A DNA stretch of 64,000 bases, taken from an uncultured Burkholderiales bacterium (lineage in GTDB: Bacteria > Vulcanimicrobiota > Xenobia > Xenobiales > JADMJV01). The stretch covers positions 28,971-92,970 of the forward strand of contig CAZYPN010000026.1 in the NCBI GenBank assembly GCA_964649085.1. The letters are read 5' to 3'. How positions within the stretch are numbered: position 1 is the first letter of the stretch; each line of letters starts with the position of its first letter. The notes beneath the pieces were generated by a model. That model was not told where the DNA came from, did not search any database, and saw only the letters and a list, made by a program, of their open reading frames with translations. Shown here one piece after another: positions 4,633 to 31,092 of the stretch. The translations under genes and the position numbers were made by a program.

Positions 4633-6045
4633 TTAAAAGTCTGTGTTTCCCCCGCTCGGGTTCCCGATTTGATCGTGGGCAGTTCCCGCCGTGTAATAGA
4701 CCACGGGCTTCTCGGCCCAGGCGGCTTCGACGGCGTCGGACACGCGCCAACCCGCCACCGCTTCTGCCGGTGTGGCAAAAAAGGCCGACTCACCCTGGGC
4801 GGCACTTGCTAGCAGGCCGGAATAGGCTGCCTGGTTGGGAATCTGGGGGTCGAGGGGCAGGCTTACCGTTTTCTCGGCCGTGACCACCTCGATACCCGCC
4901 TTTCCATTGACGGTGAACTTCATCGTGGCCGGTTGATCGGCCCTTAACCCCAGGCGCTCGGCCAGAGCCGGTGGCAGCGCGCGCAGATGAACGTCCACGC
5001 CCGAGCGTTTTTGCTCGACGCCCTTGGCGTTGATCAGGTGAAAACGCACGCCTTCCCAACGCGGCAAGCCCACCTTCAAGTCGAAGGCCACCAGGGTTTC
5101 GGCCTCAGACGGCGGAGCTCCCTCGGGCGCTCCCTGGAGGGGGTCGTTGAAGCCGGAAAACTGGCCTCGAACCACGGTCTCTGGCACGATTTCCACGGCT
5201 TCAGCCGCTCGCTGCCGCTGCAATCGAAGTTGCTCACTGGTGATGTTGGTGGGCAGATCCATGGCCAGCGAGGACAGGATTTGCATCGCATGGTTTTGGG
5301 TCATGTCCTTGAGAATGCCGGTGTCGCGGAAGTAAGGACGGTCGTTGGACTTGATCGTCTCCAACAACTTGACTTCCACCCGTTCCACATACTGCGAGCG
5401 CAACGCTTCGTCTACTTCAGGGCGGGCTTTGAATTGCAGCATATGGGACATGCCCGGATAGCCCAGAAAGTGGTCGATCAGCAACACCTGTCCGGGCTCG
5501 AAGTCGCGTTCCACCACCTCGGCCAGTTCGCGGGCCTCGGTCGAGTTGGCCCCGAAGGGCTTCTCCAGCAGAATACGCCGAAAGGCCCCGTTCTCTGGGC
5601 TTTGCGACAGCCCGCTCGATTTCAGGTTGTCCAGCAGGGGCTTGTAGGCCTTGGGGGGCACGGCCGCCAGAAAGACGGCGTTCTCGCTGCCAACGTCGTG
5701 CTGGATCTGTTGGAAGTCCTCCGGACGAGTCAGATTGACCCCCAGCACCGAGGCCCCTTCCTCTTGCAATGACGTCAATGCCCGAAACTTCTCGAATCCT
5801 GCTTCACGGATGGGTTTCGAATCGGCATCGCCCTGGCGAAACCGCTCCAGGTAGGCCGCTCCCGACGAGGGCTTCGAGCCCATCATAATCAGCGCGTGCT
5901 GTTCGGGGTTCAGACGATCGGTTTCAGCCAGCTCCACCAGAGCATCGCGCACCGAGCGCTTGCTCACGAGGTCGCCGGTGGCTCCGAAAATGTAGAAGCG
6001 CGCCGAGGGTATGGGCCCCAGGCTGCTTCGCAACAGTTCCGTCAT
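4633..6045 (-). CDS. zwf: Glucose-6-phosphate dehydrogenase-like NAD(P)-dependent oxidoreductase (divergent Zwf family)
   Basis: N-terminal FYIFGATGDL dinucleotide-binding motif, LIDHFLGY (cf. RIDHYLGKE) and ILKDMTQNHAMQIL (cf. RDMVQNHLLQ); start at Met 50 places the GxxGDL motif at residue about 17 as in G6PDs; alternative start 6192. Confidence 0.7.
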   Translation of the reverse strand: MTELLRSSLGPIPSARFYIFGATGDLVSKRSVRDALVELAETDRLNPEQHALIMMGSKPSSGAAYLERFRQGDADSKPIREAGFEKFRALTSLQEEGASVLGVNLTRPEDFQQIQHDVGSENAVFLAAVPPKAYKPLLDNLKSSGLSQSPENGAFRRILLEKPFGANSTEARELAEVVERDFEPGQVLLIDHFLGYPGMSHMLQFKARPEVDEALRSQYVERVEVKLLETIKSNDRPYFRDTGILKDMTQNHAMQILSSLAMDLPTNITSEQLRLQRQRAAEAVEIVPETVVRGQFSGFNDPLQGAPEGAPPSEAETLVAFDLKVGLPRWEGVRFHLINAKGVEQKRSGVDVHLRALPPALAERLGLRADQPATMKFTVNGKAGIEVVTAEKTVSLPLDPQIPNQAAYSGLLASAAQGESAFFATPAEAVAGWRVSDAVEAAWAEKPVVYYTAGTAHDQIGNPSGGNTDF

Positions 6046-6743: not shown

Positions 6744-7111
6744 GGTGGCTGCGCAGCTTCTGGTTGCTGTGTGCGGTGGCCTGGGCTCAACCCTCACCCA
6801 GGCTACCCGAGGGAAACTGGGTGGTCAGCGAAACTTCAGGCAGCACGGTGCAGGGCAACTGGTCCTATCGCGCCGGGGCAGCCGTGATACAGGCCCGCTG
6901 GAATAACGGCACCCAGGCCCTACTTCGTCTCGATTCGTGGGATGGCCAGCGCATACAAGTCTCCCGGCTCGATGCTAGCGGGCCCACCACCGGTCTCAGG
7001 GCCGTGTATTCGGGGGTTTGTCAGGGAACGTTGATTCAGGGGCAGGTCCATTGGTACTGGCCGGGCGGCTGTCGTCAGGGAAAGTGGACGGTTCAGTTGC
7101 CCCAGGTTTGA
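6740..7111 (+). CDS. Small secreted hypothetical protein (signal peptide)
   Basis: GTG start overlapping the upstream stop; FWLLCAVAWAQP signal peptide; tandem with 6297..6743. Confidence 0.5.
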   Translation: MRWLRSFWLLCAVAWAQPSPRLPEGNWVVSETSGSTVQGNWSYRAGAAVIQARWNNGTQALLRLDSWDGQRIQVSRLDASGPTTGLRAVYSGVCQGTLIQGQVHWYWPGGCRQGKWTVQLPQV

Positions 7112-7129
7112 GCTTTTCAGGGTTTCATC

Positions 7130-7909
7130 ATGACTCCCGGCTATGCTGCCCCCATGTTATCGCCGCTCCGCTTCCAATCGCCCACACTCTCGCGCCCGCT
7201 GGCAAGAGCCAATCGGCAGTCCCCGCAGGATCTGTCGACGGCTCCCTCGGACCAGGTCTGCCTCAGTGCGGCCCCAACGCCCAGCCGCACCTCGATCGGA
7301 GTTCGCGCCGGTCAGGCACTGTTGATCGGGTGCAGCCTCGTGGGCGGGGTGGTGGGGTTGGCCTCGGCGGCCCAGGCCCAGCAGGCTCAGGTCCAGGTGC
7401 GTCGCGGAGTGCGCTACGATATGACCGAGCAGCAGCTGAGCGAGCGGGTGCGCAACTCGCTGACGGCCGACCAGATCGGCGAAGGACAGCCCCACTTCAC
7501 GGCCTGGGAGGTCGACTCCAATCAGTCGAGCAAGTGGTATCACAACCCGCGCACGTTGCAGGTGGACGAGCAGCACAGCGGACGCACCGTCACCGAGGGC
7601 GACCCCTTCCGCCAGTGCGCCCGGCAAAGTGCCGACGGCACCTGCCAGACTGCCAAGCCCAATCAGATTCGTTACAGCGTGCTGAGCTGCATCTACCAAA
7701 AGCAGGAAGACGGTCAGCTCTACCGGGTCACCCACAAGTCCTACCAGCACAACTACACCCATAACATGCAGCGCAACGTCTGCGGCGGCCACGAGCTGCG
7801 CTACGACGCCGGTGCCATGACCTTCATGCCTCACCAGGTCAATGCCGAGGGCGATCAGTTGTTCCTCAATCCCGCCAACATTCTTTCGATCGAAAAAGTG
7901 GGCGGCTAG
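7130..7909 (+). CDS. Hypothetical membrane-anchored protein
   Basis: Balanced composition with a TM-like segment LLIGCSLVGGVVGLASAAQA; the overlapping antisense ORF 7157..8023 is Gly/Ala/Leu-rich junk. Confidence 0.45.
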   Translation: MTPGYAAPMLSPLRFQSPTLSRPLARANRQSPQDLSTAPSDQVCLSAAPTPSRTSIGVRAGQALLIGCSLVGGVVGLASAAQAQQAQVQVRRGVRYDMTEQQLSERVRNSLTADQIGEGQPHFTAWEVDSNQSSKWYHNPRTLQVDEQHSGRTVTEGDPFRQCARQSADGTCQTAKPNQIRYSVLSCIYQKQEDGQLYRVTHKSYQHNYTHNMQRNVCGGHELRYDAGAMTFMPHQVNAEGDQLFLNPANILSIEKVGG

Positions 7910-7917
7910 ATAGTCGG

Positions 7918-8442
7918 CTACGCCGACTTCTTCAGCAGTTGCCCAGGAGGCCAAGGAATCACGCCTCCAAGCAGGTCCACCCAGACCACCACTGCCACCC
8001 AGTGAAAGACAACCAGCGGCCACAGCGACCCGAAGCGCAGGTAGTGCAGGCTGTTCAGCAGGGCCAGGGCCAGCGCCAGCGCCAGGAAGCGCGGGTTCTC
8101 AAAGGCTGCCCGTGCCTCTGGCCCGCCTACTCGGCCCAGCAGCGGGTGCCAGAGCACGAATAGCACGGCGCTCAGCGCCACCGCGCCCCAGGGGTTGGGC
8201 GAGCCGGGTGCAGGCAGCAGCAGCACGCGCCAAAAGGCCTCTTCCAGGCAACAGGGCACCAGCCACAGGGCGGCCCAGCGACGCCAGCAGGGGCGACGCG
8301 GAGCCCAATGCAAGAACCGCCCCCGCAGCTTCCAGGCCAGCCCGGCGTAGAACAAGAGTTGCACCAGCAGCCACCCCCAGGCTTCGACGGGGGGCAAGGC
8401 CAGCGACTGCCACAATCGGTCATTTCCCAATGGAGTCAGCAT
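7918..8442 (-). CDS. CPBP-family (CAAX protease / Abi) intramembrane metalloprotease
   Basis: Motif 1 EEAFWR (EExxxR), motif 2 FVLWH (FxxxH), motif 3 HYLRF...HW; multi-TM. Confidence 0.8.
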   Translation of the reverse strand: MLTPLGNDRLWQSLALPPVEAWGWLLVQLLFYAGLAWKLRGRFLHWAPRRPCWRRWAALWLVPCCLEEAFWRVLLLPAPGSPNPWGAVALSAVLFVLWHPLLGRVGGPEARAAFENPRFLALALALALLNSLHYLRFGSLWPLVVFHWVAVVVWVDLLGGVIPWPPGQLLKKSA

Positions 8443-9002
8443 TGGGGGATATGCGAAAACATCCAGGCGTCGTGGCGCTTGCCGTGCAGGGCCAAGCGGT
8501 TGCGCAGCAACCCTTCATACCATGCCCCCGACTTTTCGGCCGCCCGACGCGACGACTCGTTGCCCACCGCCACCACGATTTCCACCCGGCCCAGGCCCAG
8601 TTGCTCGAAGGCCAGCCTTGAGGCCGCCCGAATGCAGCCCACGGCGATCCCCTGGCCCCAGCGGCTGCGGCGCACCCAGTAGCCCAGGTTGGCAAAACCG
8701 TGCTCGCGCGACAACTGGTTCAGCCCGCAGCCGGCCACCAGGTCCCCGCTGCCCGGGTCGAAGACCGCTAGAGAATAGTCCTCGCCGCGCTCCCAGGCGG
8801 GCGGGCGCGAATGGGCATAGCTGATGCTCTCGTCCTGGCTATAGTCGGGGTGACACCAGGGCATCCATTCGCTGAAGCCAGCACCGGCCGACTCGCGGGC
8901 GGCTTCATAGAGAGCCCTCGCGTCCTCGGGTTGATAGGGGCGAAAGAGCAGCTCGACGCGTACTTTGTCGTCGGCCGGCAGCAGCAGTTCGAAAGCGATC
9001 AC
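8436..9002 (-). CDS. GNAT-family N-acetyltransferase (RimJ/RimL-like)
   Basis: Acetyl-CoA-binding region RRSRWGQGIAVGCIRAASRLAFEQLGLGRVEI (Q/RxxGxG/A motif A). Confidence 0.8.
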   Translation of the reverse strand: MIAFELLLPADDKVRVELLFRPYQPEDARALYEAARESAGAGFSEWMPWCHPDYSQDESISYAHSRPPAWERGEDYSLAVFDPGSGDLVAGCGLNQLSREHGFANLGYWVRRSRWGQGIAVGCIRAASRLAFEQLGLGRVEIVVAVGNESSRRAAEKSGAWYEGLLRNRLALHGKRHDAWMFSHIPQC

Positions 9003-9065
9003 GCAGAAATCATCGCCCCCTGCGGCTATCGTGTCAATCGCTTTACAGGCCGTGGCGGGTGAAGG

Positions 9066-9257
9066 TCAGGCCAGGAAGTAAATCCCGTGACCAATATCGT
9101 CTGCAGTGTTGCCGGGGGTAATCAGGCCGGTCGCAGTATCCAGGGTGAACACCTGGTTTCCGGGGAAGTCACGCCCGGGTTCTGCCCACTCGGTCGAGGG
9201 CGTTTCCTGACGAGACCGCCGGATGGAAGGTTGGGAAACGAAGTTGGCCTGGATCAT
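9066..9257 (-). CDS. Small (63 aa) hypothetical protein; first gene of the small-ORF / GNAT / CPBP string
   Basis: AGGAG 7 nt upstream of the ATG; co-directional and tightly spaced with the GNAT and CPBP genes. Confidence 0.45.
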   Translation of the reverse strand: MIQANFVSQPSIRRSRQETPSTEWAEPGRDFPGNQVFTLDTATGLITPGNTADDIGHGIYFLA

Positions 9258-9421
9258 GGTTTGCTCTCCTGGATGTTTTGTCTGTAGGGACCAGCTTACA
9301 CGGCAATCCTGAAAAAGCTCTCAAGGGCACACTCCAAGGGGGGGGCAAACCAGGCAGGATGCTCAAATTGTTTCCAGAATGTAACCAAAGTTACAGACAA
9401 ATGAACTGGGGGGTGGGCAAC

Positions 9422-11281
9422 ATGCGCCGCGGCTTCACCCTTTACGAAGTCCTCGTGTCCATGGCCATCTTGACCTCGGTCATGGTGTTGGCCCTGGTCA
9501 ACGGTCGAACAGCCGAACGGTCGAGCCAGTCTCAGGCCGTAGCCGAGTTGCTGGCTGGCGAGTTTCGTCAGGCCCATCAGCGGGCTCTGGCCGAACATCG
9601 TCCCGTGGCCGTCGTGGTACCTGGTCAGGGCAATTCCTGCCCCCACGCCAGTTCCATTTATCTCATGGCCGGAGAAGAGAAGCCTCGCCCTTCGCGCTCG
9701 GTAGACTTTTCCAAAGAATTTCCGCTGGCCATGGTCAGCGTGGCTCACTGGCCGCTCACCAGCGGCGTCACCACACTCGACCCACCCGCTGGCGTCACTG
9801 GCCTGGATGTGAGTGCCTGGGCCGGACCAGGCTTCAGCGATTATGCCTATGTCTACGACGCATCGGGTCGGCTGCACACCAATCTGTTGCCCAACTTCCA
9901 GGGGGCCTATCATCTGGTGGTCTGCACCGGCCTGGACTATGTGTCCTCAAATCCCACGGTGACCGGAACGGCTCCTCTCAATCATTTTGCCCTGTCCAAG
10001 GTGGCCCAGCCCTATACGGTGCGGCTCACACCTTCGGGAGGCGTCAGCGTGAGCAAGGGGCTGCTGAATGCCAGTCCGGCAGTGGCTCAGCTGGTTGGCA
10101 GTATGAACTCCAGCCCCCCGGCCAGCAAGGTGTTGGTAAGCAACAGTGCCAACCAGAATCCGGTCATCGCCTCGCTCGATTTCGCCCCGCGCCTTCCCGG
10201 CGCCGGCTCCAGCACGGCCTATGTCGACAAGGACGGCTTCCTGTCGTTGAAGGTCACCGCTCAGGATCCTGAAGGCGGGCCGCTGTATATTCGTTGGACG
10301 GCCAACGGTGGTAGCTTCTCCTATCAGGATCGGGTGAGAATGCAGTGGAACGAACAGGCTCAGGCCTGGACCTCCACCTGGGAGTGGCGCCCGCCCCAGG
10401 CTTTTGTGGCCGGACAGCAGTTTGCCCTCACCTGCCAGGTGGCCGACCCGCTAGGGGCGGTGGTCAGCCTGGCAGACCCGGCCCTACAAGGGGTTGAGCC
10501 CGTGGCCGGCGGCAAGATCGGCTACAACGACGCCGCCGGTGGCGCCAAGTTGGTGCTGCAGAACGGCACTCCTGTGGGTGGCTTCGGCGATGCCACCTAC
10601 ATGTTTTTGAACTTCAGTGCCGACGGCAAGCGTGCCGTATGGCGCACCGGTCCTGCCACCGTCACCTGCAATACCGATGGCACCTCACCCCACAGCATTC
10701 CGGGTTCGCACCAGAACCAATCGTGGTCGCCCGACGGCAGCAAGATCCTCTATTGGGATGTGAGCTTTCCCCTGCGGGTGTGTGTGATGAACGCCGACGG
10801 CACCAATAAGACTCCGCTGACCCCCAACAGTTCCAGTTACATGATTTATCAGGAGCCGCGCTGGTCGAACCGAGGCGACCGCATCCTGGTCTATCAAAAC
10901 GGAGCCGCCATGCTGGTCAACCCCGACGGCACGGCGTTGGAGCCGCTACAGGGCGTGCCCGCTCAGGCCTACGGCTTTGACTTTAGCCCCGACAGCACCC
11001 GTATGTGCTACTTTCGAACGGGCACTGGGGGAGGTCTGTGGGTGTGCGACCTGACCGACAACCCCGGCGACGGACTCAATCCCACGCTAAGCAATCACGT
11101 GCAGATATCGACCGACACCCTCTATACGGCCCCACGCTGGTCGCATCGCGGAGACGCCATCGCTTACCACGCGTATTCCAGTGGCTATCGACTCAAGCTG
11201 ATTCATCCTGACGGCAGCGGCGCCGTCAGTCTGGGGTATAATGCCACGGGCAACTACACCCCGCCCAGCTGGTGTCGATAG
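9422..11281 (+). CDS. Prepilin-type N-terminal cleavage/methylation domain protein (pseudopilin) fused to a TolB/PD40-like beta-propeller
   Basis: MRRG|FTLYEVLVSMAIL class III signal peptide with Glu at +5; C-terminal repeats SWSPDGSKILYW / PRWSNRGDRILVY / FDFSPDSTRMCYF / PRWSHRGDAIAYH; GGGGGTG-type SD upstream. Confidence 0.8.
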   Translation: MRRGFTLYEVLVSMAILTSVMVLALVNGRTAERSSQSQAVAELLAGEFRQAHQRALAEHRPVAVVVPGQGNSCPHASSIYLMAGEEKPRPSRSVDFSKEFPLAMVSVAHWPLTSGVTTLDPPAGVTGLDVSAWAGPGFSDYAYVYDASGRLHTNLLPNFQGAYHLVVCTGLDYVSSNPTVTGTAPLNHFALSKVAQPYTVRLTPSGGVSVSKGLLNASPAVAQLVGSMNSSPPASKVLVSNSANQNPVIASLDFAPRLPGAGSSTAYVDKDGFLSLKVTAQDPEGGPLYIRWTANGGSFSYQDRVRMQWNEQAQAWTSTWEWRPPQAFVAGQQFALTCQVADPLGAVVSLADPALQGVEPVAGGKIGYNDAAGGAKLVLQNGTPVGGFGDATYMFLNFSADGKRAVWRTGPATVTCNTDGTSPHSIPGSHQNQSWSPDGSKILYWDVSFPLRVCVMNADGTNKTPLTPNSSSYMIYQEPRWSNRGDRILVYQNGAAMLVNPDGTALEPLQGVPAQAYGFDFSPDSTRMCYFRTGTGGGLWVCDLTDNPGDGLNPTLSNHVQISTDTLYTAPRWSHRGDAIAYHAYSSGYRLKLIHPDGSGAVSLGYNATGNYTPPSWCR

Positions 11282-21697: not shown

Positions 21698-23212
21698 TCA
21701 CCAGCTGGCCCCGGCCCCGCCCCCGCTCGACGAGCCTCCTCCCCAGGAAGATGAGGAACTCGACGACGAGCTCGACGAAGAACTCGACGAGCTTTCCGAT
21801 CGCTGCACGCGGGGAATGGTGTAGTAGCTCTTGTTATGGTAGGAACAATGAACGCAGTTGGAGGTCCTCACTCCGCGCCCCTCGCTCCATTCGGTGGCGC
21901 TCGACAGGGTTTCGCTGGTCGTCGACAGGGTGCGCCGCGAGCAGCGCGGGCAACTCGAGTAGCCGCTGAGCCAGGCGGAATAGCGGCTCTTTTGGGAGAA
22001 CTCGCATTCGGGACAAAGCCAGATGTCATAGTCGACCGAGCCGATCCGCTCTTCGGCTCGCTCTCCTTCATCCAGGTGCTCGTCGTCGCTCACCTCGTCA
22101 AGCAAAATCATGTCGCGTTGGCAGTTGGGGCAGCGCCTGCGTCGGTAGCGAAAGTAGCGATAGATGGCGTAGCCTACTCCGGCCAGGCCTCCCGCGCCCC
22201 CGGCTCCCATGGCCCAGCTAAAGTCTCCTGAATGCACGGGCGAGCGCATGGGGTGTGGGGGAGGGGCCGCCGCCGGCGCGCTCGGCGCCTCGGGAGCGCC
22301 GAGCAGCGCTACGGCCAGCTCCACCGATTGGGCGGGATGTCCGGCCTTCAGCGCTTCCTCGGCCTCGCGCTGGAACTTCTCCATTCGGGCCGACGAATAG
22401 CGCCCGGTCGATTCCGGGCCCAGGCGCAGGGACAGTTGGTGGCTGCGGGGATTGAGCACCAGCAGACCGTCCTTGCCCGCCACGGCCCAACTGCGCTGAA
22501 GTTCTTCGGCCACGGCCGACGGACCGGCCGGTGCCTTGTCTTTGTCTTTGAGCAGAACGGTCAGCAACTGCACGTCCTGGCTGGCGATCAGCCCCTCCAG
22601 ATCGCGTTGCAGCCGGGCCCGAGCATCCTTGGGCAGGCGCTGTCCAGGGTCGACGATCAGGCTACCCTTGGGGCGCGGGTCGGCCAGCGACTGAACCAGT
22701 GCCGAGGGCCGTTTCAGGCCAGAGTACACCACGGGTTGCAGGCGCTTGCACAAGGTTTCCGTGCAGAACACCACGCCCTGATCGGGGTGGCCGGCGCGAA
22801 AGTGCGGCACAACCTGCGACTCCAGCAGTTGCTTCAGGTCGGCGTCCGACCAGTACTGGCGCACGCCATCACCGGTGACCACTTCCATTCGCCGTTCCTG
22901 AATCACCACCAGAAAGAGCAGGCCGTTGTTGACCCCGCGCTGACCCACCCCCCAATAGTTGAACAGTCGATGGGCATAGTCTCTGGGGGCCATGCCGCTG
23001 CATTCGGGCAGGATCACCACCCCTACCTCACTGCCGTTGGCTCGTCGCAGGGCCTCGATACACCCGTGCAGTTGCTGCTGCTGAGCCGCGCTCAGCACAC
23101 CACACATATCGCTCACCCAGCGGTTTTGGGCCCTGGGGTTGGGCACTTCAGTGTAGGGCACCCCCCAGGCGGGCACGGCCCACAGCAGCAGAACACACAA
23201 AAGCAGTCGCAT
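21698..23212 (-). CDS. TPM (TLP18.3/Psb32/MOLO-1) domain protein with two TPM repeats, a TM segment, CxxC zinc ribbons and a poly-Ser/Gly tail
   Basis: Signal peptide; VSDMCGVLSAAQQQQL...GLLFLVVIQERRMEVVTGDG TPM-like domains; CPNCQ...CPECEF and CPRCS...CVHCS pairs; 17 consecutive Ser. Confidence 0.7.
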   Translation of the reverse strand: MRLLLCVLLLWAVPAWGVPYTEVPNPRAQNRWVSDMCGVLSAAQQQQLHGCIEALRRANGSEVGVVILPECSGMAPRDYAHRLFNYWGVGQRGVNNGLLFLVVIQERRMEVVTGDGVRQYWSDADLKQLLESQVVPHFRAGHPDQGVVFCTETLCKRLQPVVYSGLKRPSALVQSLADPRPKGSLIVDPGQRLPKDARARLQRDLEGLIASQDVQLLTVLLKDKDKAPAGPSAVAEELQRSWAVAGKDGLLVLNPRSHQLSLRLGPESTGRYSSARMEKFQREAEEALKAGHPAQSVELAVALLGAPEAPSAPAAAPPPHPMRSPVHSGDFSWAMGAGGAGGLAGVGYAIYRYFRYRRRRCPNCQRDMILLDEVSDDEHLDEGERAEERIGSVDYDIWLCPECEFSQKSRYSAWLSGYSSCPRCSRRTLSTTSETLSSATEWSEGRGVRTSNCVHCSYHNKSYYTIPRVQRSESSSSSSSSSSSSSSSSWGGGSSSGGGAGASW

Positions 23213-23271: not shown

Positions 23272-24651
23272 TCAGGCCTGGGGTTTTCGGCGCAGCAACT
23301 TGCCGCGGGTCTTGTCGCCCACGAACTTTCCGTCCTTGACTGCCAGCTGCCCGCGCACCGTCACATGGGTGGGCTTGCCATCGATTTCCATGCCCTCAAA
23401 GCCGCTGTAGTCGTTGTTGACGCTGTGCTCTTTGGCCGTGATCTTGCCGCGATAGTTGGGGTCGTAAATCACCAGATCGGCGTCGCTGCCCACCGCGATC
23501 GTTCCCTTGCGGGGGAACAGTCCGAAAATCTTGGCCGATTTGGTGCTGGCGGCATCGACAAAGCGGTGAATATCCAGGTTGCCGCGGCTCACCCCATAGG
23601 TGTACAGCAGGTTTACCCGGTCTTCGATGGCAGGAATGCCGTTGGGAATGGCCGTGAAGGCATCTTTGCCCATCTTCTTTTGCTCCACATCGAACGGGCA
23701 GTGGTCGGTGCCCACCGTGTCTACCAGCCCCTGGGCCAGGCCGTCCCAGAGGATCTTCTGGTTGCGTTTGTCGCGCAGGGGGGGCGACATGACATGCTTG
23801 GCACCCTCGACGCCGGGGCGTTCGGCGTAGGTCTTGTCGAGCATAAAGTGAGGAATGACCGATTCCACGTAGAGCGGAATGCCTCGCTGTTTGGCGGCCA
23901 CGGCGGCCTGCAGCGCCGGCCCGCAGGACAGGTGCACCACATAGCCGGTAGCCCCGGTGTTTTCCAGGAAGGTGGCAAAACGACTTGTGCCCTCGGCCTC
24001 CACCGATTCGGGCCGGCTGGGTTCATGCCACTCCGGTCCCGTCTTGCCTTCGGCCAGCAGTTTCTGCTGCAGGCGGCCCACCAGTTCGGCGTTCTCACAG
24101 TGGGCCGTCACCACCACCCCCAGTTCTTTGGCCAGCAACATCGTTTGATACATCTCGTCATCGGTCACGCCGAAGAAATTCTTGTAGGACAGGAAGATCT
24201 TGAACGAAGTGGTGCCGTCGGCCACGATCTCGCGCAACTGCTTCTCGGTGGTCTCATCGAACTTGGAGATCCCCATGTGAAAGGCATAGTCGCAGGCGCT
24301 GTTGCCCTCGGCCTTGGACTTCCACAAAGCATAACCGTCTTTCATGGCGTCTTCGGTTCGGTTGGGGCAGCACATCTCGATATAGCAGGTGGTGCCTCCG
24401 ATCAGGGCGGCCCGACTGGCTGTCTCGTGGGTGTCCTTGGCAAAGGTGCCCATGAAGGGCAGATAAATGTGCACGTGAGGATCGATAAAGCCCGGAAACA
24501 CCAGTTTTCCACTGGCGTCGATGACCTCGCAGCCGGCCGGAACTTCCAGGTTCTTGCCGATTCGCGTGATGGTCTCGTCTTCGATATAGATATCGGCCAC
24601 GGTTCTGGAATCGGCCGTTACGATTTCACCATTTTGAATAAGTAGCGCCAC
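23272..24651 (-). CDS. Dihydropyrimidinase / D-hydantoinase (cyclic amidohydrolase)
   Basis: PGFIDPHVH metal-binding motif, TDHCPF, about 460 aa; GTG start with GGAGGG 7 nt upstream. Confidence 0.85.
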   Translation of the reverse strand: MALLIQNGEIVTADSRTVADIYIEDETITRIGKNLEVPAGCEVIDASGKLVFPGFIDPHVHIYLPFMGTFAKDTHETASRAALIGGTTCYIEMCCPNRTEDAMKDGYALWKSKAEGNSACDYAFHMGISKFDETTEKQLREIVADGTTSFKIFLSYKNFFGVTDDEMYQTMLLAKELGVVVTAHCENAELVGRLQQKLLAEGKTGPEWHEPSRPESVEAEGTSRFATFLENTGATGYVVHLSCGPALQAAVAAKQRGIPLYVESVIPHFMLDKTYAERPGVEGAKHVMSPPLRDKRNQKILWDGLAQGLVDTVGTDHCPFDVEQKKMGKDAFTAIPNGIPAIEDRVNLLYTYGVSRGNLDIHRFVDAASTKSAKIFGLFPRKGTIAVGSDADLVIYDPNYRGKITAKEHSVNNDYSGFEGMEIDGKPTHVTVRGQLAVKDGKFVGDKTRGKLLRRKPQA

Positions 24652-24883
24652 GGATATACCCTCCAACAAACTTCTCTGGGCGGGCGCTTCTTCGGCGGGC
24701 CCCCGTCCACCTATCCGGGTGTCAGGCAACCCCCAGGAGGGATTCCCCGAGCCCCGGTCGAAGCGCGGCTTCGCCCCGATGGAGATTCAACTTTTCTCCT
24801 CGAGGGGACAAGAGAGAAAGCCCATAAATAAAGGCTTCAGTGACAGTTAACCCAAGAAAAAAAAATTGAGTTAACTACCAGGA

Positions 24884-24952: not shown

Positions 24953-25699
24953 ATGAAGCATCGCTTCACTTCAATGGTCGCCCTCTGTGTCCTCAATCTC
25001 GGGATACAACACGCTTCGGCCGAGACACTCTACTCGGCACGCAAGGGCGACACCCTCACCAAGGTGGCTAAGAGCCACCAGATCACCGTAGAGAAACTCC
25101 TGGCCGCCAATCCTGCTCAGTCGGGTGTGGCCAATCTGGCCGAAGGCGTTATTCTGGTCATTCCCGATGCCGAGGAAAAGGCCGTTCGCGAAGAGGCCGA
25201 TCCCGCTGCTACGGCTGTTCGCATCGAGGGCAAAACCCCCGAACCACAGCAGGTAGCCGCCGAGACCGACGAGTTCGTTCTCGACCGTCAGGGCAACTAT
25301 CGCCGTCGCCCCAGCATGAGTGCCCGCCGTGGCAACTTGCTGCGCGGGGTTACCGGCTCGGCCCATCGCTTCCTGGGCACCCCCTACGTCTTTGGGGGCA
25401 CCAGCCAGGGTGGTATCGACTGCTCCGGCTTCACCATGCGGGTCTTCGCCATGAACGGCATCAAACTGCCGCGCACGGCCGACGTGCAGTATGCCGCAGG
25501 CAGCCCGGTGAAGAGCGGTCACGAAGAGCCCGGCGATCTGGTGTTCTTCGAAACCTACTGCCCCGGTCCGTCCCACGTGGGTATCTACCTGGGAGGGGGC
25601 AACTTCATTCACGCCTCGTCCTCACGCGGGGTCTGTGTCAGCAACCTCTCCGACTCCTATTACAAGAGTCGCTACCTGGGCGCCCGCCGCTTCTTCTAA
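24953..25699 (+). CDS. LysM domain + NlpC/P60 (C40) peptidoglycan endopeptidase
   Basis: Signal peptide; LysM YSARKGDTLTKVAKSHQITVEKLLAANP; C40 catalytic GIDCSGF...H...H; AAGGAAGGTGAGAG SD. Confidence 0.85.
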   Translation: MKHRFTSMVALCVLNLGIQHASAETLYSARKGDTLTKVAKSHQITVEKLLAANPAQSGVANLAEGVILVIPDAEEKAVREEADPAATAVRIEGKTPEPQQVAAETDEFVLDRQGNYRRRPSMSARRGNLLRGVTGSAHRFLGTPYVFGGTSQGGIDCSGFTMRVFAMNGIKLPRTADVQYAAGSPVKSGHEEPGDLVFFETYCPGPSHVGIYLGGGNFIHASSSRGVCVSNLSDSYYKSRYLGARRFF

Positions 25700-25721: not shown

Positions 25722-25752
25722 GAGCTCGACCCATCCGGGTCGGGCTCTTTTC
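25722..25752 (+). terminator. Putative rho-independent terminator (11-bp stem with one mismatch, 4-nt loop, TTTT)
   Basis: gagctcgaccc-atcc-gggtcgggctc followed by ttttc, immediately after the LysM-P60 stop. Confidence 0.45.
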
Positions 25753-28700
25753 AGTTGCGCGGACTGAACAACTCGCCCACTTCGTCAAAGTTCAGCTCTT
25801 CTCCGCACAGCACGCGCGTGCGCTCGTCGAGCAGCACCGATCGCCCCAGCAAGTCGCTTTGCGACTGCACCTTGTGGGCTCTACGCACGCTGTCGCCTAT
25901 CACGGTAAACTGTTGCTGATCGCCGGCCCGCAAAATACCCACCGTCAGCAGCCCGCTACACAGCCCCGCCCCCACGTCAAACGACTCGTGCTCGCTCAGA
26001 TTCCAGCGCGAACGCAGCCGACTCACCACCTGCTCCAACTCCATGGCGGCTCGCACCGCTGCCAAGGCCGGCCGCGCCAGCGGGCGCAGCAGCCCGAACA
26101 CCACCAGTTGAGCGTCGCCCTGGTAGGTCAGCACCGACCCCCCGTGGCGCTCATAGCAGGCCACGGTTTCCTCGTGGTATTCGTTGAGTAACTCCAAAAT
26201 TTGCACCGGGCTGCGCCGTTCCGAAAGCGAGGTGTAGCCGCGGATGTCGGTCACCAGAATGGTGGCCTCGCCCACCCGGTCGGGGGTTTCTCCTCGCTGC
26301 ACCAGGTCCAGCACGATGCTGTCGGGCACAAAGCGCCGCAGGGCCGATACCGACATCAGCGTGCGTCCCAGCAACAGCAGAAGCCCGGCCAGCGCCACCG
26401 AGGTCACCGGCTCCTGGCTCAACACCCAGCCGGCGCGGGTCAGCCAGAAGTGCCCCAGCCAGGCCAATCCCAGCCCTGCCAGGCTGACCAGGGTCAGCTC
26501 GGCAAAGCGGCGAGCCTTCATTCCCAGACCGGCCACCAGAGCGCAGGCCAACCCGGCCAGCAGCGTTCCCCAGCGACTTTCCCGCAGGTCCTGTGGAGGG
26601 CGCGGTGCCAGCAAAGTTTCCAGCAGCTGGGCGTGCACTTCGGCTCCCTTCATCGGGCCCACCGGTGTGTCAAAACGGTCGCTCTCTCCGGGCATCGCGT
26701 CGCCCACCATCACCACCGCGCCCTGCAGGGGCGGCAGCGGTTCCTCCAGCAGCCGGGCGTAGGAATAGCGCAGCCGCCTGGGGCGCTGCCAGCGCACCAG
26801 GCACTGTTCGGGCAGCCTTTGCGATCCCAGTTGTAGGGGCGGGCCAGGGTGCAGGGGCTGTCGCTGCAGCTGGGCGGCCACGGCCAGGGCCGCCGCCGGA
26901 TAGGCGGGGTTCAGCTCCCGATATACCAGGGCCAGCGAGCGCAGGCGCCCCTCCTGGTCCTCCATGCGGCTGTGAATCAAGCCCACCTGCATTCGCTCCC
27001 GCAGCTGGGCCACGTCCAGTCCCGGCAGCAGTGATGGTGGCTCTACCTCCGAACTGCCGGCCCTGCGCCGGGCGGCACCGGCCAGCACCACCCGGGGAAA
27101 CTTCTGAACCGCCTCGGCCAGAGCTCGATCCTCGTCGGTCGAGTTCGAGGCGGTGTCGAACAAAATGTCGTAGAAGACGCAGCCCACCCCGGCCCGTTCC
27201 AGGTTGGCCAGCACCCGGGCGTGCAGGTTGCGAGGCCAGGGCCAGCGGTGCACCTCCAGGCAGGCCTCGTCAATGCCGGCCAGCACCACCCTGGTGGCTA
27301 TGGGTGCCCGGCTGTGCAGCAGGGGTCGGTCCCAGAGCCAGCCGCTCAGCCAGGGAATCGGGCCCAGCAACCAGGCCGCCCCGGTGGCCAACGTGGCCAC
27401 CGCCAGTGTGGCTCGAGGGGCGCCCCGCCCCCAGGAACGCGGCCGCCCGTCGGAAGTGCGGCGGGGCTGGCGCCTGACCAGCGCCTGGCGAGCCTCGAAT
27501 ACCGGCACAGGCTCGGCCTTGCCTTTCAGCACCAGAGGTTCCAGCGCTTCGGCCTCCACCCGAATCCCGGCCTGCTCGCGGGTCCGCTCGGAAATCAATA
27601 CGCCCTTGCCCAGCTTGCGGGCCGCGCCCATCAGGCGAGCGGCGGTGTTGGTGGTGTCGCCGATGGCTGCAGCCGCCTTCAAACCGCTGGCTCCTACCTC
27701 TCCCCAGGCCACCGGGCCAGTGCACACGCCGCAATGAATGGCCTCGGGTGGCGCCTCCCAACTTTGCATCAGTTCGGGCACCCGGCGACACAGATCCAGC
27801 CCGGCTGCCACCGCCCTCAGGGCGTGGGCCTGGCGGGGGTGCAGTGTGCCAAACCCCACCATCTGGGCGTCTCCTTGCTGATCGAGTATCAGCCCCTGAT
27901 GGGGCAACAGCACCTCGCCCAGCAATTGGGAATACTCGCGGCGCAGGCGCGAGGCCCGATGATGGTCCGACTTTTCCAAGTCGAGCAGAAACTGGGGCAG
28001 CATCGTAAAGAGAATGCTGGCTTCGCGCATTTCGCCGTCTTTGGACTCCGGTTCGGGCGTGGAGAAGGCCTGTACCAGTCGGGCTGCCAGCGGGCCTTGC
28101 AGCATCAATCCGGTCACCAGCGCCCCCAGCGAGCCCAGCCACACCGGTACCACCGCCCCCACCAGGCCCCGTCGCGCCAGTTCCAGTTGCAGCAGGGCCC
28201 AGAGTCCCAGGCTCAGCAGCCAGACCAGGCCGGCCCCGGCCGGTTGCAGTCGCGACAGCAGCCCGCACAGCCCGGCCAGCCAGGCCGCTCCCAGGGCCAG
28301 TTGGAAGGCCAGCGGTAAAGGTTTCCAGCCATGGCCACTCAGCAGGCTGTCCCACAGGCTGCCCAGCAGTTCCAGGCGGGCCATGCTGCCGGTGGGGGTT
28401 TTGCGGTCCACCTGCTCGGCGCTCTGCAAGTAGCTACCCAGCACCACCACCTTACCTTTCAGGTGCTCGGGGTTCTGAGCGGCTGCCAGCAGCGGGATGG
28501 GTGCCAGGCGAAAGACCCCGGTGGGCCCGCTCACCATGGCCTCGGTTTCGGCGAAGTGAAACAGCGGATAGAAGCGCCCCTGGCGGTCCAGCGGCAATAC
28601 CAGGCGGTCCACGGGGGTGCCCTTCACCCGCGCCAGTTCGCTCATCAGGGACGTGGGCCGACCCTGGCGTAGCAACTGAAACCGGCGCACCACCCCGTCC

Positions 28701-28984
28701 GGCTCGAGAAGGGCCTCGTCCAGCGCGTCGGGCATCACCACCCTGGCTCCGGCGCTTTCCAGGAAGCCTCGAAACTCTTCCAGTTCGGCCTTGCCCAGCC
28801 CGGCACGGGCCGAGTCCTCGTCAAGACCCACCAGCACCAGTTGATCCACCAGAGGTCGGTCCTGCCAGTGGCGCACCAGTCGTTGGCGCACATCGTAGCT
28901 GGCCCATTCCAGGCTGCGGCCCAGGCCCAGCTGGCCCAGCAGCAGGCCCAACAGTGCCGCAAACAAGCGCAGTCGCAGGGCCAC
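25751..28984 (-). CDS. Membrane signalling protein: two consecutive CHASE2 sensor + class III adenylate/guanylate cyclase (CHD) modules in one 1077-aa polypeptide
   Basis: Two CHD-like regions (GDAQMVGFG...TNTAARLMG and YQGDAQLVVFG...GDSVRRAHKVQS) each preceded by a TM-flanked extracytoplasmic region; GTG start with GAGGG SD. Confidence 0.75.
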   Translation of the reverse strand: MALRLRLFAALLGLLLGQLGLGRSLEWASYDVRQRLVRHWQDRPLVDQLVLVGLDEDSARAGLGKAELEEFRGFLESAGARVVMPDALDEALLEPDGVVRRFQLLRQGRPTSLMSELARVKGTPVDRLVLPLDRQGRFYPLFHFAETEAMVSGPTGVFRLAPIPLLAAAQNPEHLKGKVVVLGSYLQSAEQVDRKTPTGSMARLELLGSLWDSLLSGHGWKPLPLAFQLALGAAWLAGLCGLLSRLQPAGAGLVWLLSLGLWALLQLELARRGLVGAVVPVWLGSLGALVTGLMLQGPLAARLVQAFSTPEPESKDGEMREASILFTMLPQFLLDLEKSDHHRASRLRREYSQLLGEVLLPHQGLILDQQGDAQMVGFGTLHPRQAHALRAVAAGLDLCRRVPELMQSWEAPPEAIHCGVCTGPVAWGEVGASGLKAAAAIGDTTNTAARLMGAARKLGKGVLISERTREQAGIRVEAEALEPLVLKGKAEPVPVFEARQALVRRQPRRTSDGRPRSWGRGAPRATLAVATLATGAAWLLGPIPWLSGWLWDRPLLHSRAPIATRVVLAGIDEACLEVHRWPWPRNLHARVLANLERAGVGCVFYDILFDTASNSTDEDRALAEAVQKFPRVVLAGAARRRAGSSEVEPPSLLPGLDVAQLRERMQVGLIHSRMEDQEGRLRSLALVYRELNPAYPAAALAVAAQLQRQPLHPGPPLQLGSQRLPEQCLVRWQRPRRLRYSYARLLEEPLPPLQGAVVMVGDAMPGESDRFDTPVGPMKGAEVHAQLLETLLAPRPPQDLRESRWGTLLAGLACALVAGLGMKARRFAELTLVSLAGLGLAWLGHFWLTRAGWVLSQEPVTSVALAGLLLLLGRTLMSVSALRRFVPDSIVLDLVQRGETPDRVGEATILVTDIRGYTSLSERRSPVQILELLNEYHEETVACYERHGGSVLTYQGDAQLVVFGLLRPLARPALAAVRAAMELEQVVSRLRSRWNLSEHESFDVGAGLCSGLLTVGILRAGDQQQFTVIGDSVRRAHKVQSQSDLLGRSVLLDERTRVLCGEELNFDEVGELFSPRN

Positions 28985-30024
28985 TAAGGCACCCTCAGTT
29001 GGCCCTCCAGCGGACGTCCCTGGGGCTGCCCCTGACTGTCTACAGGCCAGGCTCGCCAGCGATAGGTGCCCGACTCCAGCGGGCGCGCATCGGACGGATA
29101 GTCTACCTCGCCCTGGTTCGTCCGGGCGCTCCAGTAGAGCTCGCGTTCAAAGGAATCGCCGCGGGTCAGCAGCAGCTGATAGCCTCCGGTGGCAGGAGCA
29201 GGCAGCGAAAAGTGAGGGCGCCCTCCCACCAGCCAGGCCGAGGCGCCGGTGCGCATCTGCGTTCCTCGGTTGCTGTTCGACCCCCTCAGTCCACCCAGGC
29301 TCTGCAGCAGGCTGTCGCGAGTGGTGTAGGCCGCCTGCCTCAACTCGTCGGCCGTGGTCAACATATCCTGGCGAAAGGCCTGCATCTGCTGACGGGTTTC
29401 AAACAGCTGCTGACGCATGTCAAACAACTGCTCGCCCAGTTCTGCGCGCAGTCGCTTCAGCAATTCTTCGGTCGAGCGCAATTCGGCCACCAGCGGACGC
29501 CCCGCTCCAAAGACCACGTCGGCTCCGGGCACGGCCTCATAGGCCTCTCCCTGATCGGGCTGCACGACCACTTCGCCTTCCAGCAGGGCCAGACGGGTCT
29601 CGCCGCTCTCCTGTACCGACACGACGAATTCGGTGCCCTTGATGGCCATCACCCCACCGGCGGTCTTCACCTTGAGGTCTTTCTTCTGCTTGTCCACTTT
29701 GGCCCAGAGCGTGCCCGACTTTACCAGCAGGGTATTGCCCACCACCTGCACATCGCGGTCGCCTACGATTTCAATTTCCGAGCCCTGAGCCAGGTTGGCC
29801 ACCCCGCCCAGATGAAAGCGCAAAGTGGCCCGCGTTTGCGCATCGGTCTTCAGGTGCTGCCCCTTGAAGTTGTCCATGTCGACAAAGGCTCGATACCAGT
29901 CGGACTTGCCAGCGTTGTGATACATCAGATTGCCGGCTCCCGCCAGGCTCTCCACCTTGCCCACTGCCGTGGGTTCGCTCCAGGCCGCCACGGCCAACCC
30001 AAGCCACAGGATCCAGGTTCGCAT
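28984..30024 (-). CDS. Secreted FecR-domain protein with a distinctive C-terminal domain
   Basis: Signal peptide MRTWILWLGLAVAAW; FecR-like beta-sandwich LWAKVDKQKKDLKVKTAGGVMAIKGTEFVV; GGGGG SD; stop overlaps the cyclase gene start. Confidence 0.7.
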   Translation of the reverse strand: MRTWILWLGLAVAAWSEPTAVGKVESLAGAGNLMYHNAGKSDWYRAFVDMDNFKGQHLKTDAQTRATLRFHLGGVANLAQGSEIEIVGDRDVQVVGNTLLVKSGTLWAKVDKQKKDLKVKTAGGVMAIKGTEFVVSVQESGETRLALLEGEVVVQPDQGEAYEAVPGADVVFGAGRPLVAELRSTEELLKRLRAELGEQLFDMRQQLFETRQQMQAFRQDMLTTADELRQAAYTTRDSLLQSLGGLRGSNSNRGTQMRTGASAWLVGGRPHFSLPAPATGGYQLLLTRGDSFERELYWSARTNQGEVDYPSDARPLESGTYRWRAWPVDSQGQPQGRPLEGQLRVP

Positions 30025-30090: not shown

Positions 30091-31092
30091 ATGGGTTATG
30101 GCCTCCTCAACGACGTCTTGTTCAAAATCGTCTTCGGTAGCCCCAGTAGCGAGCCCGTTCTTCGGGCGCTTTTGAATGCGCTGCTCGGCTACACTGGAGA
30201 GGACAAGATCGCCGAGTTGCAGATCCAGAACCCTTCGTTCGACAAAGAGTTTGTGCACGAGAAGGGTTCCATTCTCGACATCAAGGCTCGAGATCGGAAG
30301 GATCAGCTTTACAATATCGAGGTTCAGCTCACGCCTGGCTATCCCGATGACTACCTGAAACGTTCCGTCTACTACCTGACCAAGCTATTTTGTGAGCAAC
30401 TTGAGCGGGGCCAGCCCTACAGCAGCCTGAATCGAACTATAAGCATTTCGTTGCTTGATTTTGTGCTGTTTCCCGAGACTACAGAACTCCACAGCCGATT
30501 TTCTCTCTACGAAAAGGACCGTCAACAACGACTGACCGATGTCATCGAGCTGCACTATATTGAGCTCAAGAAATTTTCACCCAACAAGCCTCATCATTTG
30601 CTGACACCGTTCGAAAGGTGGCTTTACATTCTGAAGTTCTCCGACCTTTATGAATCCGAACCCTTACCCCAAAATCTGCTGCAGGAAGAAGGTATCTCCA
30701 TGGCCATCGATTCTATGAAACGGGCCTATGCGACCGACGAGATCCGCGAAATGATCCTCGCTCGTGAAAAGGCCCATCGCGACCTTGTGAGTTTGCGCGC
30801 GAGCGCCATCCGGGAGGGTCACGAACTGGGTCGCGCTGAGGGTCGCGCTGAGGGTCGCGCTGAGGGTCGCGAGGAGGGTCGCGAGGAGGGTCGCGAGGAG
30901 GGTCGCGAGGAGGGTCGTCGCTCAGGGCTTCAGGCGGGATTGGCTTTGGCCCTGGATCTTCGATTCGGAGAGTCCGGGGCTTACTTGAAGCCATTGACGT
31001 TGGCCGCCACGGTACCACAACTCGAGGCCGCCCTGGCTGCCTTACCCCAGGCCACCACGCCCGCGGAACTCGAGGCCCTGTTGAAAAGCTGA
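30091..31092 (+). CDS. Rpn/YhgA-like PD-(D/E)XK nuclease family putative transposase (TIGR01784-type)
   Basis: Family-typical MGYGLLNDVLFKIVFG start; C-terminal GRAEG/GREEG repeats; about 50% GC against about 67% around it; TATAAT 8 nt upstream of the ATG. Confidence 0.75.
   Translation: MGYGLLNDVLFKIVFGSPSSEPVLRALLNALLGYTGEDKIAELQIQNPSFDKEFVHEKGSILDIKARDRKDQLYNIEVQLTPGYPDDYLKRSVYYLTKLFCEQLERGQPYSSLNRTISISLLDFVLFPETTELHSRFSLYEKDRQQRLTDVIELHYIELKKFSPNKPHHLLTPFERWLYILKFSDLYESEPLPQNLLQEEGISMAIDSMKRAYATDEIREMILAREKAHRDLVSLRASAIREGHELGRAEGRAEGRAEGREEGREEGREEGREEGRRSGLQAGLALALDLRFGESGAYLKPLTLAATVPQLEAALAALPQATTPAELEALLKS
30828..30918. repeat. About 7.5 tandem copies of a 12-bp unit ggtcgcgMKgag (GRAEG/GREEG codons) inside the Rpn-like gene
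   Basis: Directly visible. Confidence 0.9.

Follow-up and report, generated by a model that had tools for sequence, protein, structure and literature searches.

A bacterial receptor protein with two CHASE2 sensors and two complementary cyclase domains, predicted to be a single-chain pseudo-heterodimeric class III nucleotidyl cyclase

Bacterial class III nucleotidyl cyclases are described in reviews as homodimers, and the concatenated, asymmetric pseudoheterodimer is attributed to early eukaryotes (PMC4821796, PMC9552081). Here we describe a gene from an uncultured bacterium (GTDB class Xenobia; assembly GCA_964649085.1, contig CAZYPN010000026.1, positions 28,971 to 92,970). This whole stretch of 64,000 nucleotides is referred to as the window, and all coordinates are given within it. 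The gene (25751..28984, minus strand) encodes a protein of 1077 residues in which a CHASE2 sensor and a class III cyclase domain occur together twice. We propose, with a probability of roughly 0.8, that it is a pseudo-heterodimeric class III nucleotidyl cyclase which is embedded in the membrane, consists of a single chain and has one predicted active site. The CHASE2 domain, the class III cyclase, the pseudoheterodimer principle and the synteny of FecR and CHASE2 genes are already known. In the literature covered, which did not include subscription journals, no description was found of cyclases with two CHASE2 domains, of heteromeric CHASE2 cyclases or of pseudoheterodimeric cyclases in bacterial membranes, nor of the present combination of a membrane receptor, two distinct CHASE2 ectodomains, inverted domain order, an Asp/Ala base pair, and both split and fused forms.

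The mammalian membrane adenylyl cyclases (AC1-9; class IIIa, with the order TM1-C1-TM2-C2), for which an origin by duplication and fusion has been proposed (PMC9552081), likewise carry two membrane modules and two complementary catalytic domains per chain, with one active and one degenerate site, and AC9, AC5 and AC8 are the best whole-chain structural matches of the protein described here. There are clear differences, however. Each module of the present protein has 1+3 transmembrane segments and a CHASE2 ectodomain of 196-262 residues that is predicted to be periplasmic, as compared to six transmembrane segments in the mammalian enzymes; the C2-like half precedes the C1-like half, which inverts the order; the cyclase domains are nearest to the class IIIb-type Cya2 and CyaB rather than to class IIIa; and the base-specifying pair is Asp368/Ala439 instead of Lys/Asp. 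A neighbour-joining tree places its origin independently, within a bacterial CHASE2-cyclase clade. The protein is predicted to work in a way similar to the transmembrane adenylyl cyclases (tmACs), but it is not a member of that family, as it has neither the domains of six transmembrane segments, nor the C1-then-C2 order, nor the Lys/Asp pair.

The closest single-module system is Cya2 of Synechocystis PCC 6803 (2W01), a CHASE2 guanylate cyclase built from the same module, i.e. CHASE2, transmembrane segments, a linker resembling the cyclase transducer element, and a class III domain. Cya2 is the best match in sequence and structure for both cyclase domains, and it has an acidic residue (Glu488) at the canonical Lys position and a tiny one (Gly562) at the second base-specifying position. 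A single active site suffices in Cya2, and the replacement E488K switches its substrate from GTP to ATP (PMC6005667, PMC5995499). Unlike the present protein, with its two modules and one predicted composite site, Cya2 is a symmetric single-module homodimer with two complete sites, and its base pair is Glu/Gly rather than Asp/Ala; the protein is accordingly not assigned to the Cya2 type.

Two further groups share the principle of complementary domains on one chain. In the alveolate P4-ATPase-guanylate cyclases (Toxoplasma TgATPaseP-GC, Plasmodium GCalpha/beta), which are pseudo-heterodimers, the tasks are divided between the domains in the same inverted manner: in the Toxoplasma enzyme, a Glu/Ala base pair and the transition-state residues are located in the first domain, and the two metal-binding Asp residues in the second (PMC6592433). 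These are eukaryotic proteins, however, with modules of six transmembrane segments, a P4-ATPase fusion, no CHASE2 domain, and Glu rather than Asp. Tandem complementary domains also occur in the mammalian soluble adenylyl cyclase (sAC; C1-C2, then NTPase and TPR) and in bacterial soluble STAND proteins. Among the homologues collected in this study, the bacterial proteins P0070-P0101 are soluble proteins of about 1300 residues in which tandem cyclase domains, with the signatures D-K-D-V-E/D-V and then M-K-D-L/M-N-R, precede AAA and TPR regions. From these signatures they are predicted to be sAC-like pseudoheterodimers with the mammalian C1-then-C2 order, and since their domains are complementary, the description of bacterial class III cyclases as homodimers (PMC4821796) does not hold without exception. 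In contrast to the protein described here, the STAND and sAC proteins are soluble, have no sensor ectodomains, and retain both the C1-then-C2 order and the canonical Lys; in the cyclase tree, they are found on an unrelated branch.

Complementary catalytic residues and the predicted active site

The canonical class III residues were mapped by alignment to Cya2 (2W01) and CyaB (3R5G), to which both cyclase domains align best (phmmer against PDB, E-values from 8e-11 to 4e-15). The first domain, cyc1 (residues 319-500; 27485..28030, minus strand), is the C2-like half and the second, cyc2 (residues 903-1077; 25754..26278, minus strand), the C1-like half, as delimited by Pfam PF00211, the Cya2 and CyaB alignments and the family columns, with codons verified. 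At the position of the first metal-binding Asp, cyc1 has Met328 and cyc2 Asp913; at that of the second, the residues are Asp372 and Asp957, respectively. The two base-specifying positions are occupied by Asp368 (cyc1) and Thr953 (cyc2) where Lys or Glu is canonical, and by Ala439 and Thr1027 where Asp, Thr or Gly is canonical. The transition-state Asn and Arg are present in cyc1 as Asn446 and Arg450, and are replaced in cyc2 by Arg1034 and Lys1038, while Lys487 of cyc1 is found at the phosphate-binding position. Both metal-binding Asp residues are thus found only in cyc2 and the Asn/Arg pair only in cyc1, and the full catalytic set is satisfied only in trans, as neither domain holds it alone. 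This pattern is maintained throughout the family: D368, D372, A439, N446, R450, K487, D913, T953, D957 and R1034 are invariant in 40-42 full-length homologues with 31-58% identity, position 1038 is Lys, His or Arg, and the first-metal position of cyc1 is Asn, Glu, Leu, Met, Ile or Ser, but never Asp. Class III cyclases are known to work by a two-metal mechanism. On this basis, a metal ligand would be missing if cyc1 paired with itself, and the transition-state residues would be missing if cyc2 did so; one complete active site would be provided only by the cyc1-cyc2 pair.

Structure prediction agrees with such a pairing. The whole-chain model, made by AlphaFold2 with a family alignment of 40 sequences, has a mean pLDDT (predicted local distance difference test) of 89.3 and a predicted template modelling score (pTM) of 0.84. 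Its best PDB matches found with Foldseek are full-length human AC9, AC5 and AC8 (E-values from 4e-17 to 9e-12, 950-1013 aligned columns). Both sAC and the soluble domain of AC9 superpose across the two catalytic domains with target-normalised TM-scores of 0.62-0.66 (about 0.64 for sAC on the cyc1/cyc2 pair), which implies that cyc1 and cyc2 in the model are packed like C1 and C2, as judged from pTM and Foldseek TM-scores rather than from measured contacts. The initial annotation of this gene had suggested an intramolecular heterodimeric cyclase, and the conserved complementary residues and the C1/C2-like packing of the model lend strong support to this. It had also noted GDA/GDS-type motifs in both cyclase domains. 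These are indeed present (QQGDAQ and IGDTTN in cyc1, YQGDAQ and IGDSVR in cyc2), but the two domains are not each complete, and one composite site is predicted.

The same residues bear on the possibility that two independent receptor-cyclases have simply been joined, with cyc1-cyc1 and cyc2-cyc2 homodimers forming across chains to give two enzymes per polypeptide. Single-module CHASE2 cyclases are normally homodimers (PMC4821796; PMC6005667), and both modules are complete in domain content. However, the cyc1 homodimer would be without the first metal-binding Asp in both of its sites, and the cyc2 homodimer without the Asn and Arg in both of its sites, so that both would be inactive by the established mechanism. 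Moreover, the reciprocal losses do not vary within the family or among the split gene pairs described below, as an obligate heteromer predicts, and we consider two joined enzymes very improbable.

Somewhat less improbable, but still unlikely, is that the protein is a non-catalytic dual-sensor receptor in which the cyclase-like domains bind nucleotide or serve as a scaffold. One such protein, which binds ATP and has class III cyclase-like domains in tandem, is known from P. aeruginosa (PDB 6YII) and is among the structural matches of the AlphaFold2 model. Asp stands in place of the canonical Lys and Ala in place of the canonical Asp/Thr, and catalysis by family members is a prediction from sequence. 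On the other hand, cyc1 and cyc2 together keep the two Asp residues, Asn, Arg and Lys487 at 100% conservation, down to about 31% identity, which is difficult to account for if the domains are not catalytic. The nearest relatives with a single module are numerous and have Asp at the Lys position with the other catalytic residues intact, and Asp is therefore compatible with a maintained active site. An acidic residue combined with a small one at these positions is also found in characterised guanylate cyclases.

The pair Asp368/Ala439 differs from the Lys/Asp or Lys/Thr pairs of adenylate cyclases and resembles Glu/Gly of Cya2 and Glu/Ala of the alveolate guanylate cyclases. By this analogy we lean, at about even odds, towards GTP as the substrate and cyclic GMP (cGMP) as the product, in preference to cyclic AMP (cAMP) or another cyclic nucleotide. 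The likeness of Asp/Ala to Glu/Gly in charge and size is to be taken as a lead for GTP specificity and not as proof.

In the mechanism that we propose, cyc1 and cyc2 would pair head-to-tail within the chain to form one complete active site. Both metal-binding residues, Asp913 and Asp957, would be supplied by cyc2, while cyc1 would supply the base pair Asp368/Ala439, the transition-state residues Asn446 and Arg450, and the phosphate-binding Lys487. The symmetry-related second site, formed by Met328 and Asp372 of cyc1 with Thr953, Thr1027, Arg1034 and Lys1038 of cyc2, would be unable to catalyse. Residues T953, R1034, H1037 and Q1040 of this degenerate site are nevertheless invariant in the family, and K1038 is mostly conserved, which suggests a maintained function. 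As the site is family-invariant though non-catalytic, it is probably a structural or allosteric pocket, comparable to the forskolin and bicarbonate sites of mammalian cyclases; the allosteric variant is a speculation from sequence. The two non-identical CHASE2 ectodomains would determine which conformation the fixed-length linkers adopt, and hence how active the single site is, and the co-transcribed secreted FecR-domain protein (see below) probably acts together with them. The protein would then offer a bacterial system to study how two different extracellular sensors control one catalytic site, which parallels the question of the role of the membrane domains in mammalian adenylyl cyclases.

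Several points weigh against the proposal of a single-chain pseudo-heterodimer. The activity and product of every family member are extrapolated from sequence, and Asp in place of the Lys or Glu is not among the characterised determinants of specificity. The topology is derived from hydropathy and predicted helices, the C1/C2-like packing is read from pTM and Foldseek TM-scores instead of contacts, and the neighbour-joining tree of cyclase domains is without bootstrap support. In addition, whole chains may dimerise. A more far-reaching proposition can be put forward only tentatively, and taken as a whole is more doubtful than probable: that fused and split forms together make up an obligately heteromeric CHASE2 receptor-cyclase family which has independently re-invented the tmAC design, with cGMP or another non-cAMP product through Asp/Ala, with two periplasmic inputs and a FecR-like co-receptor acting on one site, and with the degenerate site (T953/R1034/H1037/K1038) as an allosteric ligand pocket.

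Domain layout and membrane topology

The gene extends on the minus strand from a GTG start codon (28982-28984) to a stop codon at 25751-25753, as established from the open reading frame list and Pfam, with coordinates verified. Pfam finds CHASE2 in three stretches and Guanylate_cyc in two stretches of the whole protein. When the protein was cut into four pieces and each was scanned separately, all four scored above the Pfam gathering cut-offs (26.3 bits for PF05226 and 21.9 bits for PF00211), with 55.2 bits for CHASE2-1, 29.5 for cyc1, 133.2 for CHASE2-2 and 51.0 for cyc2. A scan of NCBIfam gave sub-threshold matches only. The two modules that the initial annotation had recognised in the reading frame are thereby confirmed, and so is its view that the halves are related, since the N-terminal and C-terminal halves share 30% protein identity over 323 residues in a self-alignment (E = 5e-17).

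The first module begins with an N-terminal anchor (TM1, residues 1-25; 28910..28984), identified by hydropathy and by AlphaFold2 helices at residues 2-40. It is followed by the CHASE2-1 ectodomain (residues 26-221; 28322..28909), which scores as an isolated N-terminal piece and is the shorter and less conserved of the two sensors, with a mean column conservation of 0.38 in the family alignment. Three hydrophobic segments (TM2-TM4, residues 222-296; 28097..28321), coinciding with predicted helices at 225-243, 248-271 and 279-307, form a region that is constant in length at 75-76 residues across the family. Linker 1 (residues 297-318; 28031..28096), the transducer segment between membrane and cyclase, has 20-22 residues in all 40 family members and leads into cyc1. 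An Arg-rich linker between the modules (residues 501-524; 27413..27484; RRQPRRTSDGRPRSWGRGAPR) is apparent from the sequence, has a low pLDDT near residues 510-520, and lies at the position of the gene boundary in split two-gene forms.

The second module has the same order. TM5 (residues 525-543; 27356..27412; hydropathy, predicted helix 522-540) precedes the CHASE2-2 ectodomain (residues 544-805; 26570..27355), the longer and better conserved sensor (conservation 0.52). TM6-TM8 (residues 806-882; 26339..26569) were again found by hydropathy and correspond to predicted helices at 804-823, 827-850 and 858-882, and linker 2 (residues 883-902; 26279..26338) is constant at 20 residues in the family alignment. 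This linker aligns with the FGRY region of the cyclase transducer element of Cya2 (lrrfvpdsiv versus fgryltdqvv), a motif described earlier (PMC5995499), and this alignment and the constant length of 20-22 residues of both membrane-to-cyclase linkers fit a rigid transmission of the signal. Conservation is highest in the cyclase domains, with values of 0.66 for cyc1 and 0.74 for cyc2. The C-terminus of cyc2 is about 15 residues shorter than the family consensus; truncation by a frameshift was considered and rejected, as the whole near clade ends equally short.

The layout is thus one transmembrane segment, CHASE2, three transmembrane segments and a cyclase domain, twice in one chain. Hydropathy and the helices of the AlphaFold2 model coincide in giving membrane spans of 1+3 and 1+3 (residues 1-25, 222-296, 525-543 and 806-882), in line with the topology put forward initially, and an arrangement of one segment, CHASE2 and three segments has also been described for CHASE2 kinases (PMC5192318). 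As judged from hydropathy and predicted helices, and not from a dedicated predictor, both CHASE2 domains would be periplasmic and both cyclase domains cytoplasmic, with which the Arg-rich linker after cyc1 is consistent. Starting from an inside N-terminus, the chain would run through TM1, periplasmic CHASE2-1, three transmembrane segments, cytoplasmic cyc1 and the Arg-rich linker, which would be cytoplasmic, and then through TM5, periplasmic CHASE2-2, three transmembrane segments and cytoplasmic cyc2.

The CHASE2-2 ectodomain modelled in isolation is an alpha/beta domain (pLDDT 89.7, pTM 0.88) for which Foldseek found no significant match in the PDB (best E-value 0.36, TM-score below 0.25), and the CHASE2 fold seems to be without a solved representative. 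As a rule, the ligands of CHASE2 domains are not known. For CHASE2 sensing in Sinorhizobium, an outer-membrane protein has been described as the relay of a plant protein signal (PMC13001267).

A long reading frame with two similar halves could in principle be an artefact, either of assembly duplication or of a sequencing error that joined adjacent genes at their boundary, and split two-gene versions are indeed found in related organisms. Duplication in assembly is impossible, since a nucleotide comparison of the two halves gave no similarity above noise, and this candidate explanation was rejected. The same unbroken reading frame of 1077 residues, identical or nearly so and with the same neighbours, is found in at least eight independent assemblies (runs DRR438460, DRR438461, SRR15237813, SRR34831191, SRR34831224, SRR34831239, SRR34831238 and SRR34831213). 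An uninterrupted two-module reading frame, with a linker of 26-40 residues and TM5 in frame, also occurs in about 40 diverged homologues (31-58% identity). The chance that the gene is an artefact is therefore negligible, which settles the concern about duplicated assembly that the initial annotation had raised.

Family members, split forms and evolution

When 1.84 billion cluster representatives were searched exhaustively with a profile, 8,275 related proteins were found at E <= 1e-30, of which the top 150 were classified. The fused form is rare, with about 15 full-length and about three partial cluster representatives among these 150, and single proteins of cyc1 type and cyc2 type, corresponding to the split form, occur in similar numbers. 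The named fused members are from metagenome-assembled genomes (MAGs) of Eremiobacterota/Xenobia, a naming that derives from few MAG labels. A profile scan of genome contigs found one locus of the same architecture, in a Candidatus Xenobia MAG, and one unrelated single-domain match.

Among the CHASE2 cyclases with a single module, the closest ones mostly have a complete catalytic set and already have Asp at the Lys position (signature D-D-D-T/A-N-R), and a subset of the single-module proteins has the cyc1-type defect, with the signature N-D-D-A-N-R. On three contigs (L006, L007 and L008), a cyc1-type gene is followed by a second CHASE2-cyclase gene with a 4-nucleotide overlap (GTGA); on L007, the two genes are located at 7001-8872 and 8869-10758. 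This second gene has the cyc2-type signature D-T-D-T-R-K, and its product shares 37-41% identity with the C-terminal half of the protein from the window. The gene order of the split pairs is as in the fused gene, and in L007 and L008 a FecR gene lies upstream. One split-type protein cluster is labelled Candidatus Xenobia.

In a neighbour-joining tree (without bootstrap), all 62 cyc1-type domains fall in one exclusive clade and all 57 cyc2-type domains in another. The sisters of each clade are complete single-module CHASE2 cyclases, and split forms are found at the base of each. The simplest reading is a duplication, followed by reciprocal loss to give an obligate heteromer, and then by gene fusion; the reverse route, by fission of a fused gene, is possible. 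The tandem internal duplication that was originally suggested holds in so far as the halves are homologous, but it is probably not recent: relatives encode the already specialised halves as adjacent overlapping genes, which favours a fusion of neighbouring paralogues or, in the opposite direction, a fission. The pseudoheterodimer solution would thus have arisen independently inside a bacterial receptor-cyclase clade. As all three evolutionary stages are extant (complete relatives of the homodimer type, pairs of specialised genes side by side, and fused chains), the route of duplication, reciprocal loss and fusion is directly testable.

A sizeable number of the CHASE2 cyclases found have Asp where the base-specifying Lys or Glu is otherwise located. 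This group comprises single-module proteins such as P0043-P0060 and P0154-P0260, which are complete and have Asp, or sometimes Ser, at this position. Another subgroup of single-module CHASE2 cyclases (P0063, P0075, P0078, P0080, P0081, P0086, P0089 and P0097) has the unusual pair of Arg at both base-specifying positions (D-R-D-R-N-R), and includes a protein of Phytopseudomonas punonensis.

The FecR-domain partner and neighbouring genes

Directly upstream of the cyclase gene, on the same strand, lies a gene for a secreted FecR-domain protein (28984..30024; Pfam FecR, PF04773, 40.3 bits against a cut-off of 24), which the initial annotation had overlooked. Its TAG stop codon overlaps the GTG start of the cyclase gene by one nucleotide (TAGTG). 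The protein has 346 residues when read from the ATG at 30024, the longest reading frame starting from a GTG at 30258. A signal-peptide-like N-terminus (MRTWILWLGLAVAAWSEP) is followed directly by the FecR domain and then by a helical stretch, with a small domain at the C-terminus. Full-length orthologues with 29-60% identity adjoin the fused or split cyclase in all six lineages examined, and we propose that the FecR-domain protein acts as a periplasmic co-sensor. Scans for promoters and terminators around the FecR-cyclase operon were uninformative, and no sigma-factor gene is present among the called neighbours, although the window was not scanned exhaustively for one.

A comparable association is known from Burkholderia, where the BiofilmReg system consists of a LysM-FecR protein and a CHASE2 histidine kinase, such that a periplasmic FecR protein is found beside a CHASE2 receptor, as here (PMC5192318). 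The output differs, being a heteromeric cyclase in the present locus and a histidine kinase in Burkholderia. Furthermore, LysM is absent from the FecR protein of the present locus and is encoded instead, together with NlpC/P60, by a separate gene downstream on the other strand. The FecR gene is translationally coupled to the cyclase gene and syntenic in every lineage checked.

This LysM and NlpC/P60 peptidoglycan hydrolase gene (24953-25699, plus strand) is convergent to the cyclase gene, ends 51 bp from the cyclase stop codon, and is present in all assemblies of the organism; a cell-wall-related input to the cyclase is conceivable.

Associations with PilZ were observed in two relatives. On contig L004, a gene with a weak PilZ-domain match (4989-5999, plus strand) lies directly upstream of the gene for the fused homologue P0016, and the FecR gene is found downstream of this fused cyclase instead of upstream. 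In the single-module relative P0056, PilZ is fused to the cyclase protein itself. These associations may hint at cross-talk with cyclic di-GMP signalling.

Two further neighbours on the cyclase stop side encode a TPM-domain protein (21698-23212, minus strand; Pfam 124 bits) and an Amidohydro_1 enzyme resembling dihydropyrimidinase or hydantoinase (23272-24729, minus strand). They are ordinary genes of the chromosomal surroundings, and nothing evident connects them with the cyclase. On the other side, a gene for a transposase of the PD-(D/E)XK nuclease family (30091-31092, plus strand; Pfam PDDEXK_2, 183.9 bits) lies immediately upstream of the FecR-cyclase operon in divergent orientation. It encodes a C-terminal EGRAEGRAEGREEGREEGREEGREEGR repeat, and is situated in a stretch with a GC content of 0.52-0.56, as compared to about 0.65 in the flanks.

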